A stretch of DNA of 64,000 nt, counting the filler, from Stramenopiles sp. TOSAG23-6 (taxonomy: Eukaryota): NCBI GenBank assembly GCA_900128565.1. It is 22 parts of 22 records of this genome, joined end to end, with 100 filler letters (N's around TTAATTAATTAA, not from the genome) between each part and the next. Parts side by side here need not be neighbours in the genome. Positions count along the whole stretch, not along the records: positions 1 to 2,834 come from LT637799.1; positions 2,935 to 5,768 come from LT637800.1; positions 5,869 to 8,699 come from LT637801.1; positions 8,800 to 11,629 come from LT637802.1; positions 11,730 to 14,559 come from LT637803.1; positions 14,660 to 17,488 come from LT637804.1; positions 17,589 to 20,413 come from LT637805.1; positions 20,514 to 23,337 come from LT637806.1; 14 more parts are not named here. The stretch is one strand, 5' to 3'. The notes beneath the pieces are model-generated. The model saw nothing but the letters and a program-made list of their open reading frames with translations. It made no database searches and had not been told where the DNA came from. The position numbers and the translations under genes are program-made. Positions within the stretch are counted from its first letter, which is position 1, and every line of letters starts with the position of its first letter. Shown piece by piece: positions 93 to 24,609 of the stretch.

Positions 93-1395
93 AGTCGTGT
101 CTTTCAGTTTGTGAAAATTATGAGTTAGATTATGTGGATGGGCGATCCGCTTTCTTCCTTCCTGGTTTGAGACAAAAAATTATTAATGTGGCTGATTTTC
201 GTGGAGGTGGTGGATGGGAAACGCTTCGTGAAGGTGGAGAATTTATTAAACAGCAGCTTGTATGTTTTATTTTTTTTTTAAACAAAAAATCGATTTTTTT
301 TTCGTACCAAATTTTGTACCTAACGATTTTTTTTTGAAATATTTTTTCATCATACTTGCTTTGGGTGGTCATTGTTACGTTCATTGTAAGGCAGGTAAAG
401 GCAGATCTGTGATAATGGTAATGGCCTTCTTGATGGACTTCGCTGGAGGTTCAATGTTACCTTTAGATGCATACGAAGCCGTTGTTGCACATAGACCTCA
501 AATAAATCCAGATACATTTCTATCTCATACAAAAGTACGAGAAATACACGAATACTGGTTATGCCATGTAATGAAACAACCCCTCAATAAAGAGTCAAAA
601 TCATGTATGTTTTATTTTTTTTTTACAAAAAAATCGAATTTGTTTTTTTATAGGAAATTTTGTACCTAACGATTTTTTTTTTGAAATATTTTTCCAAAAA
701 TCATGGATTATAAAAGTAATGGGAAGCTCGGGAGCCCTGTCTGGTATATCAAGTTTGTTTGGTATGAAACGTGGGGGTAGTGGTTACTTAAAATGCAGAG
801 ATAAACTCTATATTTTATACGGCGGCACAGAAAAAGCTAAAGAGATTGCTCGAGAAGTGAATGACAAAAAAAATTGTATGTACGTTTTCAAAATTGATTT
901 TTTACCTATATTTTTGTTTCGTACGAAATTTCGTACCTAACGAATTTTTAAAGCCAAAAAAAAATTATTTTTTCACAATACATGCTAACTACTGGAGTCG
1001 TAAGTTTTCGAGCTGATGATATTTGTCGTAGATTCAAGCAGGCAAAAATAGAAATGGTAGATTGTCGATCTTGCTATGAGAAGTTATTCAAAGTAGAAAG
1101 AAATCAGAGTGGTCATATAGACAAGATTTTAGGATTTTGTGTCGAAGAATTTGCTCAAAAAATGGAACATCAAAAAAAATCATCAATGACATCAAAAAAG
1201 GAAACTTTAAATAATTTTTCGACTACTACAAATAATACCAAGAACGCGGGAGAGGATGTCAGCATTCAGCAAAGTCGAAATTCCATAGGTACGGATTCAA
1301 TTTCGAATTTACCACCTGCTCCTCCATCTATTCAAAATGTCATAGAAACTTCATCGGACCAAGTTTTGCCAAATTTTGAATTCAATGAATTATGA
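93..1395 (+). CDS. Dual-specificity phosphatase (PTPMT1-like) with C-terminal extension, 5'-partial; exons ~93-259, 358-604, 705-879, 984-1395
   Basis: Catalytic loop VHCKAGKGRS. Removing family introns 260-357, 605-704 and 880-983 gives one frame (FIKQQL|ALGGHCYVHC). Confidence 0.8.
260..357 (+). mobile_element. Introner-family intron, GT...TT
   Basis: CTT|GTATGT..GTACCTAAC..CATAC-TT|GCT. Removal restores typical DSP spacing before VHC; TT is duplicated at both junctions. Confidence 0.8.
605..704 (+). mobile_element. Introner-family intron, GT...AT
   Basis: TCAT|GTATGT..TACCTAAC..AAAATCAT|GG restores the frame into the 719 ORF; AAAATCATG occurs at both junctions. Confidence 0.75.
880..983 (+). 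mobile_element. Introner-family intron, GT...AT
   Basis: AT|GTACGT..GTACGAAATTTCGTACCTAAC..CAATACAT|G joins the 719 and 982 ORFs. Confidence 0.75.
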
Positions 1396-1683
1396 AGAAA
1401 TATTTCAAACAAATTGATTTTTCCAACACAAAATTTTCTAAAAAATAATAATGCAGTCATTTAGAAAAGCCAAGAAGTCAGATAAATGGATGATATAATA
1501 ATTGAATGAAGAATATTTATTATAATAAATGCATGAATTGTACAATACAATATAGTATTATTTCATCTGAAGCAATTTTTTGATACAATACAGTATTATT
1601 TCATCTGAAGCATTTTTTTGGTTAATTGTATAACTTTAATTGTATTCTATCATTCTATTCATAGAGCCAATACGTATATATGT

Positions 1684-2775
1684 TTAAAATTCGTCACTTG
1701 TGTTTCCATCATTTCCATCTGACAACATCGAATCATCCATAGACTGCATTTGTTGATGATGTGACTCCGTTGGGGGTTCCGAATATTTTCTACCAACACT
1801 TGCCAGCATTCGATGTTTTTTTCGAACTCTTGTTGAGGTTGACAAAGTTTCGCGAAAAACATTCTTTCTATTATTTCTATTTTGCTGCGGTTGACTCTGT
1901 GATTGGGATGATCCTCCATCCAAGTAAGAGAGTATATGTATTTTGAAAAATATTTCAAAAAATTCTTAAAAAAATTGTTAGGTACAAAATTTCGTACGAA
2001 AATAAAATTGGNANTTNAAAAAAAANAAAANCATATATTCGAATCTACATTGTGTTGATTTGTATAACTACTGTGTGAAACTGTATCCTGTTGCTTAATT
2101 GAGTGGTCTGCTACAAAATGGCTTAGTACAATATTACTGTTGTTATCTTCAACTTCGGATTCTTCTGAATTTTCAACAAATTCATCATTATCTACTAATT
2201 GCTTTGAATTATTGATGGTATTATTATTATCTAATGAGTTTGACCTTTGATTCGATGTTCCCACTTGATACGTGTCATTATATCTTGAAGAACCTGATCT
2301 TGTTTCTATTGACGTTTCATTTGTTTCAGCAGCACGTTTATGATGAAAGACTCTAGAATCATTCGCATCATTATAAAATCTTTTATTATTATTCTCGTCA
2401 TTGTTTTCTATTTGATCACTCTTTTGTTCACTAGACACTCGTTGGTTCTGTTGCTCGTGTTCATAATTATTACTATAATTATTATTCCTCGAAAGTCCAA
2501 CAAATGAATTTTCTTGATAATTATTATTACTCGAAAGTCCAACAAATGAATTTTCTTGATAATTTTCCTTTGAAATCCTACTTGAATAATTACTGTTTTG
2601 TTGACGTGATGATTTGGTAGCATTTGCTTGATTTCGTGTTGAGCTTCGATTTGATACATTTTTCATTGCAGTATTTTCATTTTCATATGCTGCACATGTG
2701 GAAATAATTAATTCAGCTGAGAATAATTCACTTGGCCGAGAATGGATTCCGGCGTATGATCCCGGTGTTGTCGTA
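1684..2775 (-). CDS. Hypothetical Asn/Ser-rich protein, 5'-partial; exons 2775-2037, 1935-1684
   Basis: Open frames joined across family intron 1936-2036 (AT...AT). Confidence 0.55.
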
Positions 2776-2834
2776 ATATATTTTGGAAAAATATTTCAAA
2801 AAAAAAAAACTTAAATTTGTTAGGTACAAAATTT

Positions 2835-2934
2835 NNNNNNNNNNNNNNNNNNNNNNNNNNNNNNNNNNNNNNNNNNNNTTAATTAATTAANNNNNNNNNN
2901 NNNNNNNNNNNNNNNNNNNNNNNNNNNNNNNNNN
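2835..2934. other. Artificial contig linker (N-run, TTAATTAATTAA, N-run); recurs about 20 times in the window
   Basis: Identical 12-mer with stops in all frames, flanked by N runs of similar length, e.g. ~5813, 8744, 11674, 14604, 17533, 20458. Confidence 0.97.
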
Positions 2935-21954: not shown

Positions 21955-22354
21955 TCTCATACGCGAGTAGTGCTTAAAAATTTTATTGGAATATTTTTTG
22001 TTAAAATACCTTTTTTACTTTTTTTAGATGCAATATACTCAATTTGCAGTCAAATACGCCATGAGCGGTTAAAAAATATTATAAAATTTAATATTCTCAT
22101 AATTTAAAATTGTTTTTTTTCTAAAAGGATAATTTATTTTTCTACCTTTTTTTTTTATTAAAAAAGTTTCTTTTTGTCATTTTTTTTCTTTTTTTCGTGT
22201 CGTCGGGTCGGGGTCGAATTCTTAGAATCTCGATTTTTGACTATTGAATTATTCGATCACTGGTCATCGAAAGCAAAGCTATCGACCAAGCAAGCGAAGA
22301 CCTGGTGTTTATACTTCCAGAAACTTCGAATTTGTTGGAATATTAAATTTCACG

Positions 22355-23149
22355 ATGGCAAATTCTCTAAAGTCATACTTGACATGTGTTCAAGAAACAC
22401 TGACAGCAGCATTGTGTATCCGTGATTTCCCCTCCCAGGTAGTAGAGCGCCATAACAAGCCAGAAATTGAGTATAAGTAAGTTAACTTAACCAAACTATT
22501 TGAAACCAAGTTTCGTTGTTGACAACAATATCCCTTTATCACCAATCACTGCTTTAACCGTAGAAACCTAATATGTTTGCATAGTTTACGAGAATGTCTC
22601 TTTGCATTTCAAAAAATGTTTCTCTTGGTAGTTGGCAGTGTCATTTATTTTTATGTTTTTCTTAACCTTCTTTACTATTTTCTAGTCATTCATCACTGTC
22701 TTTTTTATTAACCTTATTTCACTGATCTGAATACATACCCCATGAATAGAATGAGCAAAGAATTGCTGATGAATCCTATTAAAATAACGCGTACGAAGAA
22801 GGAATCTGTTTTAATTGAGCCGTCTATTAACTCAGTTCGTGTCAGTGTAAAGATTAAACAAATGGACGACTTAGACACAATCCTTTGTGAAAAGTTCACT
22901 AGTTTTATCATGTTACGCGCCGAGCAGTTTGTTGTGTTGAGAAGAAAGCCAGTGGATGGATACAACATAAGTTTTCTAATAATGAGTTCTCATTTGGAGG
23001 AGATGTGGCGGCATAAAGTGGTCGCCTTTATTATTGAGTTTATGACAGCGATAGATGCTGAATTGAGTTACCTCAAACTTGCTACAAGTGCTCGTGCAAG
23101 AATTGTTGCGAAGGAGTTCTTTGCGGAGTTTGCGGATCATAGTTGTTAA
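22355..23149 (+). CDS. ARPC4: Arp2/3 complex subunit 4; exons 22355-22476, 22750-23149; canonical GTAAGT...AG intron
   Basis: [46 protein letters not shown]. The intron lacks the family core. Confidence 0.95.
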
Positions 23150-23489
23150 TGTCATAGTGTAGTTTTAGACATGTTAAAATTAATCATTGAATTTTACGAA
23201 ATAAGTCGTGCAATGAGCATTTTAATATAAATACAGTATGATGCTTTTAAACTAAGAATTTCTAATTAAGAATATCCGTAAATCGTCATACTTATAACAC
23301 ACATATGTTTCAATCTCTCTCTCTCTCAAATTGTTTCNNNNNNNNNNNNNNNNNNNNNNNNNNNNNNNNNNNNNNNNNNNNTTAATTAATTAANNNNNNN
23401 NNNNNNNNNNNNNNNNNNNNNNNNNNNNNNNNNNNNNTTTTTATAAAAAAAAAATTCGATTTTTTTGTTAAAAAAAAAATAAAACATAC

Positions 23490-24609
23490 ATATTAGAAAT
23501 CGACTTTATATGATGTATGTCCACATTTTGACTACTATTAGATAAATTACTATCAGATCCATTATTCATTGAAGTGTCTGAATCTGAAAGTTGAGAAGGG
23601 GAGGGGAGGTATTGTGAAAAAATATTTAAAAAAGAAATCGTTAGGTATGAAATTTCGTATGAAAAAAACAATTCGAAATTGAAAAAAAAAACACATATAG
23701 ACGAAGTGTGTCGAGTAACTTCTCAATATTTGACACTGTTGCAGTTGCAGCGGCAACGGCAGTAAAAGCTTGTTTGCAAATGTTTTGTAGTAGTATTTGG
23801 AAATCACTCGAATGCTCTTTATTACTAATTTCTTGACTATTCGACGGAGTTGTATCATCTACAGGACTATCAGCTATATCAGCCAAAGTTGTATGTTTCG
23901 TCACGGCGATACTTGGATTGCTGTTGGGAATTTGCTGAGGAATTCGTTGTATTATTCTTGGATGCGCAGCTCCTTGTGGAAGTCGAATATACACTCCTAT
24001 AACATCGCCCGTCGTCCATTCGGTAGTATATTTTTTCTCATTATCAGTGCGTCTATTGCTATTTCCAGTCCATGAGGCCATTTCTCCAGTTCCCCAATTC
24101 GAAAAACCTTCGGCATATGGTTTTCGCCAACCTCCAGAGATTTTATTACCATCAATATCACGGATTGCGTATGAATCCGTGTCTTTTCCTACCGGAAACA
24201 TTAAATCAGTTTTATTGGTACCCCAACCAATACGAATATGAGATCTCTGTGTCTGCGACTTTGCAAGTTCCACTTCAAAATACCAAGACCCAGAAGTGAC
24301 ACCCTGAGTGGCTCTGATAGTGCGATAACCTTCCACCGGACTACTAATAACCATTAACCCATCATCGCTAACCTTTAGCTTCGTCGCATGGTCTGTCTGT
24401 GACAACGTAACTGAGGATACTGCTCGAAGCTTTGCTGCAGCTCCCGGCTTCAGCTTAGACGAGACACCAAGCTTTGACTTTGCTGATTTCGAGCGAAAGC
24501 TGGAAGTTTTTGCTTTTGTTATTTTCTTTTCACTCTTACGCCGTTTGGAAAACTTATGCCCATTGTTAGAAGAAGCACGATGGCGTTTCAGAGAATCTCC
24601 ACTTGCCAT
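23490..24609 (-). CDS. ASH2L/Bre2-like SPRY protein, 3'-partial; intron 23607-23698 (AT...CT)
   Basis: GYRTIRATQGVTSGSWYFEV..HIRIGW..PVGKDTDSYAIRDIDG. Confidence 0.75.

Follow-up and report, generated by a model that had tools for sequence, protein, structure and literature searches.

How does a genome come to be filled with near-identical introns, and how are such introns removed when few of them end in AG? Both questions are raised by a 64,000-nucleotide stretch of DNA from Stramenopiles sp. TOSAG23-6 (GenBank assembly GCA_900128565.1), referred to below as the window, whose genes are interrupted about once per kilobase by near-identical introns of ~95 bases. A first-pass annotation had proposed that these introns derive from a transposon, with the duplicated target site serving as the splice acceptor. 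The explanation that we favour, with slightly more belief than doubt, is a version of that proposal: the element would be an introner-type family, likely a miniature inverted-repeat transposable element (MITE) that duplicates 2 bp of its target as ISL2EU elements do, and it would be spliced by the major spliceosome at an acceptor that is not AG.

The window is AT-rich (~31% G+C) and composite. Spacers, each consisting of 44 N bases, a 12-base linker with stops in all frames and another 44 N bases, recur every ~2925 bases from 2835-2934 to 61138-61237, and cutting at them yields 22 contigs of near-equal length, ~2.8 kb each, whose sizes slowly decrease. Because the spacers join separate contigs, genes on either side of one are not genome neighbours, and the range 260-23698 given in the first-pass annotation spans nine such contigs. 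Two contigs, 23438-26260 and 26361-29183, are 100% identical across 2823 bases by blastn among the 22; this is a duplicate assembly entry, and the intron that the two share (23607-23698, identical to 26530-26621) is counted once in all that follows.

The element family

The repetition is most easily seen in a 16-mer core, which at no more than one mismatch occurs 52 times in the window against 0.01 occurrences expected; none of 100 dinucleotide-preserving shuffles reached 52. Complete copies number 39. Their ends were set by the best match to 5' and 3' consensus sequences, blind to the flanks, and in seven cases were placed by hand from short end motifs. Thirty copies are 88-119 nt long and nine are 143-176 nt long; the 30 single-unit copies align from end to end, at 60-95% identity to the consensus. 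Likeness extends through segments without any known signal role, and indels are common to subfamilies. That the repeats are one homologous, high-copy intron family is supported.

The anatomy of the element is simple. It opens with GTAYGTTTT (G at position 1 in 37 of the 39 copies, T at 2 and A at 3 in all of them), continues through a variable T-rich stretch into a near-invariant block ending in TACCTAAC, and then passes through a run of T to a 3' end of GAAATATTTTTCCAAAATAC or ...CACAATAC. This 3' end is conserved as ...AAAATAC, followed by two further intron nucleotides, and its AC is kept in 29/39 copies. The branch-like motif TACCTAAC is exact in 35 of 38 copies and lies inside a conserved block of 16-23 nt. 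Conservation of this core reaches well past what a branch site needs, and may reflect protein binding or an extended pairing with U2. Immediately upstream of the branch motif there can also be found a 12-bp perfect palindrome, TTTCGTACGAAA, and GTAC occurs twice (core examples are at 4124-4143 and 41792-41807).

Some of the long copies owe their length to internal repetition. By eye, the copies at 7985-8143, 8241-8402 and 12615-12757 have a tandemly duplicated central segment of ~60 nt that includes the branch block, and hence carry two branch motifs; nesting of one insertion within another was considered for these three copies and rejected in favour of the tandem duplication. The copies at 47686-47859 and 55600-55775 likewise carry two branch motifs.

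Genes that host complete copies encode a phosphatase, ASCC3, SPRY proteins, Sds3, an RRM protein and others, and every full copy that can be interpreted lies in the sense orientation within an open reading frame (ORF). Many contigs terminate within a copy, as expected of repeats that break assembly. Contigs of one DNA and three RNA runs from seawater were mapped on the contig 38017-40825, where summed depths range from thousands to 10^5 in three element bins against about 7 in exon bins; these are sums and not copy numbers, and what they show is an element abundant in marine samples of independent origin. The DNA run, which is separate from the window's own source, yielded a 1288-nt contig that spans the interval between two introns, reaching into both, with four differences. 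In the RNA runs X7 and X8, the second of which is poly(A)-selected, element sequence is likewise very abundant on 38017-40825 and exon cover is thin; unspliced or excised intron RNA could account for this, as could carry-over of DNA.

The putative removed unit and its acceptor

Reading frames indicate what is taken out with the element. Using the longest open frames on either side of each copy (n = 33), removal of the element plus two nucleotides, element+2, keeps the frame (modulo 3) in 24 of 33 testable copies, where one third would be expected (binomial P = 4e-6). Three of the nine automatic failures (7671-7816, 53305-53406 and 53493-53581) also fit element+2 once a short neighbouring exon is read by hand; the two adjacent copies 53064-53157 and 52946-53059 are likewise among the nine. 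The earlier suggestion that the acceptor lies 2 nt past ...ATAC, whatever those two nucleotides may be, is thus supported.

The sharpest view of the junctions is offered by the ASCC3-type helicase gene, which holds two copies on the plus strand. The intron at 17827-17924 has unlike flanks, TC before the element and AT after it, so that the possible registers give different proteins. Against 59 homologues, element+2 gives a mean local score of 165.2 and restores a conserved D-R-G-P-V-L-E stretch, compared with 153.9 for the register that ends at AC and 154.4 for the nearest in-frame AG; homology fixes this junction as GT...AT, or as the equivalent +1/+2 shifts. The preference for GT-AT over AT-AC that had been drawn from this intron is borne out. 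At the other intron, 19317-19408 (flanks AC/AC), whose junction is also fixed by homology, the score is 167.5 for element+2, and moving the junction by one codon lowers it to 156.4 or 152.5. Alignments are gap-free across both junctions under element+2, and no register that gives the conserved protein ends in AG at either intron.

This locus also bears on public gene models. The best protein match to the helicase exon is P0001 (EukProt, name beginning GSMAST32) at 92% identity, with the next match at 60%. When P0001 is aligned to 17640-20208 (+) by tblastn, two of four blocks are 100% identical, and the remaining two differ only where P0001 is missing stretches and at a few terminal residues, at which its frame departs. 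Conserved helicase residues are absent from P0001 after 17825, its frame is wrong beyond 19330, and several in-frame stretches are left out. To judge from these alignments, it is evidently the public model of the window's own ASCC3 sequence, and it appears to have been forced onto GT-AG sites. Models of this organism made under the same constraint are likely wrong wherever element introns occur, and truncated or frame-shifted proteins may consequently be present in the proteomes on which protist phylogenomics and marine surveys draw.

Across the 39 copies the intron closes with AT in 27, AG in 4, TT in 3, GT in 2, and AA, AC and CT in one each; put by position, A stands at -2 in 33/39 and T or G at -1 in 37/39. 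The family therefore does not conform to the canonical GT...AG intron, since a GT start is near-universal and AG acceptors are found in only four copies. In nine of the 24 in-frame introns, the interval that runs from the branch site to 40 nt inside the exon contains no in-frame AG, and in 14/38 copies the spliceosome would have to pass over an AG that lies between the branch adenosine and the 3' end as inferred. The distance from branch to 3' end is 33-51 nt in 36 of 38 copies, a spread that argues against a strict ruler.

The machinery involved would seem to be of the ordinary kind. A U6 small nuclear RNA gene at 36060-36163 (-) is canonical, with the ACAGAGA box and AGC intact (78.6 bits, Rfam), and U6 was the sole family in an Rfam search of the window; that search gave no U6atac or U12, which is weak evidence, as the window covers little of the genome. 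By eye, the ARPC4 gene near 22480-22750 (+) has an ordinary GTAAGT...AG intron of ~270 nt that is unlike the element, so that the window holds canonical introns alongside those of the family. Put most simply, the major spliceosome would here tolerate acceptors other than AG when they stand in the sequence context of the element. We go further only tentatively, with rather less belief than doubt, in supposing that a major spliceosome with canonical U6 routinely uses non-AG acceptors 2 nt past ...AAAATAC, that these acceptors are the 2-bp duplicate made by an ISL2EU-like MITE, and that thousands of genes depend on them. Were RNA data to confirm this, it would be a case of the major spliceosome working without an AG acceptor outside tunicates and alveolates; since the 5' splice site and branch site are canonical, only recognition of the 3' splice site would have changed, and this is open to test.

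Flanking dinucleotides and the origin of the family

If the introns arrived as transposons, the bases on either side of each copy should tell. The two nucleotides before the element equal the two after it in 24 of 39 copies, 20 of them AT/AT and the others TT, GT, AC and CT. When the downstream dinucleotides are permuted, 17.4 copies match on average and 24 or more with P = 0.0009, so that the excess over base composition that the first-pass annotation had asked about is present among the window's 39 copies. The four identities other than AT compare with 0.77 expected (P = 0.0024); AC and CT each appear only once in 39 on their side, and all four copies fit element+2, at a consensus identity of 0.82-0.90. 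AT status upstream and downstream is associated as well (20, 4, 7 and 8 copies for both, upstream only, downstream only and neither; Fisher P = 0.03). Because TT, AC and CT cannot pair with themselves, their identity points to duplication and not to the constraint of a helix. The four introns cited for this pattern lie where they had been placed (260-357, TT/TT; 4089-4182, GT/GT; 19317-19408, AC/AC; 23607-23698, CT/CT), except that the last, on the minus strand, begins ATATGT and so lacks the GT start ascribed to it.

The target itself has a recognizable form. The site logo reads C, A or T at -3, A at -2 and T at -1, then the element, then G at exon position +1. As had been noticed earlier, the upstream exon ends in T and usually in AT (T at -1 in 35/38, A at -2 in 24/38). 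G occupies exon +1 in 21/39 copies against about 16% G overall, and the duplication may accordingly be of 3 bp (NN+G) in place of 2 bp. The TA duplication of Tc1/mariner elements does not occur here, as none of the 39 complete copies is flanked by TA; TA stands upstream of one incomplete copy (49692).

The mechanism that we favour would run as follows. Every copy would bring its own donor GTAYGT, a strong branch site TACCTAAC, a T-rich tract and the 3' end ...AAAATAC. As a non-autonomous DNA transposon it would duplicate 2 bp of its target, as a rule AT within (C)AT|G; the spliceosome would cut at GT and join 2 nt past ...ATAC, and a 2-bp-duplicating insertion would therefore be excised exactly and the coding sequence restored. 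Later substitutions would erase flank identity in about 40% of copies, either on the exon side or on the intron side, there towards A at -2 or AG. Transposition at the DNA level, the transposon superfamily and the decay of the flanks are all inferred. If the mechanism is right, mass intron gain would be tied to a specific group of transposons that make 2-bp AT duplications.

Parts of this picture have precedent. Introns derived from transposons, with an acceptor supplied by the duplication, are established for Micromonas (PMC11282704). In Micromonas pusilla and Aureococcus anophagefferens, short introns that are nearly identical recur by the hundreds to thousands across unrelated genes, with one splice site in the element and the other at or beside the duplication, so that the element and one duplicate are spliced out together (PMC11282704). 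Those introners differ in having GT or GC...AG sites and duplications of at least 3 bp, whereas the present family has mostly AT acceptors, a putative duplication of 2 bp and a very short inverted repeat. Non-canonical versions are described in Fritillaria (AG-AC, AG-AT), Amoebophrya, Polarella and euglenids (PMC11282704; PMC7789003; bioRxiv 10.1101/2025.08.15.670264). The MITE introns of Fritillaria borealis come close, being non-GT/AG introns whose 3' AC or AT derives from the duplication and which are removed by the major spliceosome (PMC11282704; bioRxiv 10.1101/2025.08.15.670264). They belong to a tunicate and mostly start with AG, so that their 5' end is non-canonical too; in the present family, from a protist, GTAYGT and the branch are strongly canonical and the acceptor alone deviates. 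Amoebophrya (Syndiniales) introners are also repeated, with direct repeats at their borders and inverted repeats, and are missed or mis-called by standard annotation, but their direct repeats are 3-5 nt, their inverted repeats 8-20 nt and their termini highly variable, and no U1 was detected in that host (PMC7789003). The window instead holds a single uniform family with a fixed GT start. As for the transposon, ISL2EU elements of the PIF/Harbinger-IS5 (PHIS) group make a 2-bp target duplication, typically AT, and prefer AT-rich targets (PMC4122938); the likeness of our family to them consists in the length and sequence of the duplication, and the window yielded neither an ISL2EU-like transposase nor matching termini.

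In the literature searched, no paper on this intron family was found, though supplementary tables of introner surveys, which lay outside the search, might include this genome. Large surveys start from annotated introns and drop families with unfamiliar splice sites that lack transcript support (PMC12130899); a family hidden by wrong gene models would therefore be missed. In the excerpted text of a paper on uncultured stramenopile single-cell genomes, introns are mentioned only in the methods. The family can thus be described as an introner kind with non-AG acceptors, undescribed in the literature searched, that keeps a textbook 5' end and branch site and has given up only AG.

A good deal weighs against this account. 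The flanks are unlike in 15/39 copies, of which the first-pass annotation mentions only TC/AT (within its own range 12/16 copies match): TT/AT and GT/AT three times each, TC/AT, AT/AG three times, GC/AG, AT/TT, TT/AA, GT/TT and TT/GT. Most mismatches are confined to position -2, with A in the intron against T or G in the exon; either side may have undergone substitution, for instance under selection for A at acceptor -2. Decay fits poorly with the fact that three of the 12 copies nearest the consensus are mismatched (39482-39580, 52772-52880 and 53064-53157), and mismatches are concentrated in the GTACGT subfamily (10/15, against 3/16 of the GTATGT copies; Fisher P = 0.011). AT is preferred on each side independently (24/39 upstream, 27/39 downstream), which accounts for the greater part of the raw identity, AT/AT in the main; four copies carry the argument for duplication, and slid offsets inside the exon give up to three non-AT identities by chance. 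Three or four copies depart from element+2: 38168-38262 and 39482-39580 (+0), 52772-52880 (+1) and 8241-8402 (+0 or another donor). No transposase domain was found in the window's 20 long ORFs scanned. No RNA contig spans any junction where the three seawater RNA runs were mapped on 38017-40825, parts of exons being covered; joints in the mapped contigs there were dismissed as cross-mappings between element copies. Splicing of the copies outside ASCC3 is presumed to occur in vivo on the strength of their reading frames.

The search for empty sites was likewise negative. Comparison of the 22 contigs with one another by blastn and tblastx gave only intron-to-intron matches and the duplicated contig, with no empty site or presence/absence polymorphism. 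Exact-pattern scans for further copies or empty sites returned 3 metagenome, 31 genome and 6 viral-contig loci; the metagenome loci are chance matches in unrelated sequence, and the others, single matches in bacterial, archaeal and viral records, were judged to be chance as well.

The inverted repeat that had been claimed for the element stands in part. Its GTAT/ATAC portion is solid, being present in most copies, and the terminal repeat measures 4-9 bp. Of four copies tested, one alone has a 9-nt arm at 89%, which includes the flanking AT on both sides, and single copies show sub-terminal repeats, again inverted, around the branch block. So short a repeat is possibly just the 5' splice site facing the ...ATAC end. 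A shared fold is also lacking: RNAalifold on 28 copies predicted 0 pairs, a further point against the favoured account, and single-copy fold z-scores run from -3.1 to +0.3, with one of six clearly better than its own shuffles. Taken as a whole, the excess of flank identity is real but modest, and its support for a 2-bp target duplication is suggestive, not decisive. The transposon origin draws on a single high-copy family, that excess and the precedent for AT duplication, and has to its discredit that no empty site, polymorphism or transposase was found.

The competitor that deserves most attention, though we consider it unlikely, is that the same non-AG introns spread at the RNA level, by reverse splicing, reverse transcription and recombination, or by some other copying free of duplication. 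The flanks would then look alike because the 5' exon consensus, (A)T|GT, resembles the 3' splice-site consensus, ACAT|G. Such spread would account for the separate preference for AT on each side, the 15 mismatched copies, the weak inverted repeat and the missing transposase. It fits equally well with the sense-only placement of full copies within genes and with the want of any clear antisense or intergenic full copy in the window, a distribution also expected if a compact genome selects against insertions that cannot be spliced out. What it explains less readily are the four non-AT identities, AC/AC and CT/CT included, and the association of AT status between the two sides. The target logo (C)AT|G is, moreover, palindromic, and palindromic target logos are common for DDE transposases. 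By comparison, it is very improbable that these are old, immobile introns made alike by unusually strict splicing signals. The best-conserved parts (the 5' end, the branch block and the 3' end) do coincide with such signals, but the likeness also runs through signal-free segments, subfamilies share indels, and the copies break assembly and attract thousands of metagenome contigs. In addition, the ASCC3 relatives P0002, P0004, P0005 and P0007 (53-60% identity; 752-817 residues on contigs of 2392-3487 bases) seem to have uninterrupted frames, since their residues number about a third of the contig bases and the alignment runs straight through both intron positions; this is indirect evidence, from sequence comparison, that the two ASCC3 introns are not widely shared.

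The remaining alternatives concern how, or whether, the element is removed. U12-type introns have AT-AC or GT-AG ends, a 5' motif RTATCCTT and a branch site TCCTTAAC near the 3' end. If the introns began 2 nt before GTAYGT and ended at ...ATAC, a minor (U12-type) or AT-AC-tolerant spliceosome would make the same mRNA from the 24 copies with identical flanks, and the conserved 3' AC would be explained; AC near the 3' end, long conserved 5' and branch motifs and a weak polypyrimidine logic are indeed shared with U12-type introns (PMC11282704). We regard this register as very unlikely. In the first ASCC3 intron it replaces an arginine present in 10/10 homologues that cover the position (of 12 listed), with the lower score given above, the 5' motif is GTAYGT, and TACCTAAC lies farther from the 3' end than the U12 branch sites described as close to it (PMC11282704). 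The window's lone Rfam family, U6, points the same way, weakly. Still less weight can be given to excision without a spliceosome, in which a fold would bring the ends together, the element would be cut out with a 2-nt 3' overhang and the exons ligated. Similar ideas have been raised for Amoebophrya and euglenid introns (PMC7789003; PMC11282704), and a typical copy would allow pairing between the exon AT and the final AT of the intron, beside a GTAT/ATAC stem. Against it stand the near-invariant GTAYGT and TACCTAAC, the poor folding of the copies, and the rare identical flanks TT, AC and CT, which cannot pair. Hardly any credence attaches, finally, to an artefact of single-cell amplification or assembly: the window does consist of short contigs joined by linkers, one of them twice, and 6125-6351 resembles an inverted chimera, but removal of copies restores reading frames, and both element and locus recur in independent seawater DNA and RNA runs from several studies.

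Individual copies and their surroundings

Flanks below are given as the two nucleotides before the element and the two after it. At the left of the window the copy at 260-357 (+; GTATGT...ATAC+TT) lies in a dual-specificity-phosphatase-like gene and is in frame as element+2. It is followed by 605-704 (+; AT/AT), by 880-983 (+; AT/AT), a GTACGT-subfamily copy with an alternative donor 4 nt upstream, and by 1936-2036 (-; AT/AT), which starts ATATG in a low-quality stretch with single N bases. The copy at 4089-4182 (+) has the 3' motif ATGC+GT. All those between 7671 and 14426 are on the minus strand: 7671-7816 (TT/AA), 7985-8143 (AT/AG, a canonical acceptor), 8241-8402 (AT/AT), whose alternative donor lies 4 nt upstream, 12077-12220, 12615-12757 and 12862-13005 (each AT/AT), 13911-14020 (AT/AT) in a SPRY-domain gene, with no in-frame AG within 40 nt, and 14332-14426 (TT/AT), which starts GTAAGT and is in frame as element+2. 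A SPRY-domain gene also hosts 23607-23698 (-).

Plus-strand copies prevail in the middle of the window. At a contig start lies 38021-38108 (AT/AT), followed by 38168-38262 (TT/AT), where the frame favours the element alone or element+3, 39482-39580 (GT/AT), where the element alone is favoured by the frame as well as by the phase of the intron that follows, and 39981-40071 (AT/TT), in frame as element+2. Both 41200-41294 and 41755-41854 are AT/AT, the second having the 9-nt terminal inverted repeat that takes in the flanking AT; 42608-42700, on the minus strand, has GC/AG and thus a canonical acceptor. The long copy 44881-45051 (+; AT/AT) has a telomere-like motif near its 5' end, and 45382-45492 (+; AT/AT) and 45604-45722 (+; AT/AG) both start GTATTT.

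On the minus strand again are 47686-47859 (AT/AG), 48378-48477 (AT/AT), 48840-48942 (AT/AT), the nearest of all copies to the consensus (0.95), and 49840-49930 (GT/TT), which lies in an Sds3-like gene and is in frame as element+2. A gap cuts the downstream exon of 52324-52431 (+; AT/AT). The gene at 52540-54062 then holds several minus-strand copies: 52772-52880 (TT/GT), two back-to-back copies within 52946-53157 (53064-53157, GT/AT, and 52946-53059, AT/AT) no more than 4 nt apart, and 53305-53406 and 53493-53581 (both AT/AT). Pfam gave no family in the single exon of this gene that was scanned; its exons carry, by eye, what we take to be phosphatidic-acid-phosphatase-like motifs. The last complete copies are 55600-55775 (-; GT/AT) in the RRM gene, 57866-57977 (+; AT/AT) and 63521-63619 (+; TT/AT), the first and third being in frame as element+2.

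Degenerate sequences related to the element are found as well. A short degenerate copy at 37570-37630 (+) sits between convergent genes, overlapping the stop codon of the minus-strand gene, with TT on both sides and poorly defined ends, and degenerate pieces form a tandem array at 43831-44090 (+), upstream of an ORF at a contig start. At 6125-6351 plus- and minus-strand elements meet head to head at their 3' parts between convergent gene fragments. An antisense insertion was set aside for this inverted pair, which is probably an inverted chimeric join of the kind that whole-genome amplification can yield, and not a true locus.

Intron density is uneven, as the whole contig 8800-11629 (-) is one intron-free ORF of ~940 codons (973 counting gap-derived X), with an IQ-repeat-rich look by eye. 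Base composition varies too: 29284-32095 and about 50000-52000 have 44-45% G+C, well above the remainder of the window. The first of these contains no element copy and has proline/valine-rich repeat ORFs, and this contig may come from another organism or represent an unusual gene; the contig that hosts the second carries element copies near both ends.

A telomere-like 11-mer, CCCTAACCCTA, occurs at 16 sites where 0.01 would be expected, including 5069-5079, 5180-5226, 7575-7585, 16584-16594, 33873-33883, 39693-39703, 44559-44581, 44891-44901 and 54173-54183. Some of these lie between divergent genes (5069-5226 and 54173) and some just inside the 5' parts of introns (39693, 44891 and 7575), and the motif may be of a promoter type or a piece of a different element.

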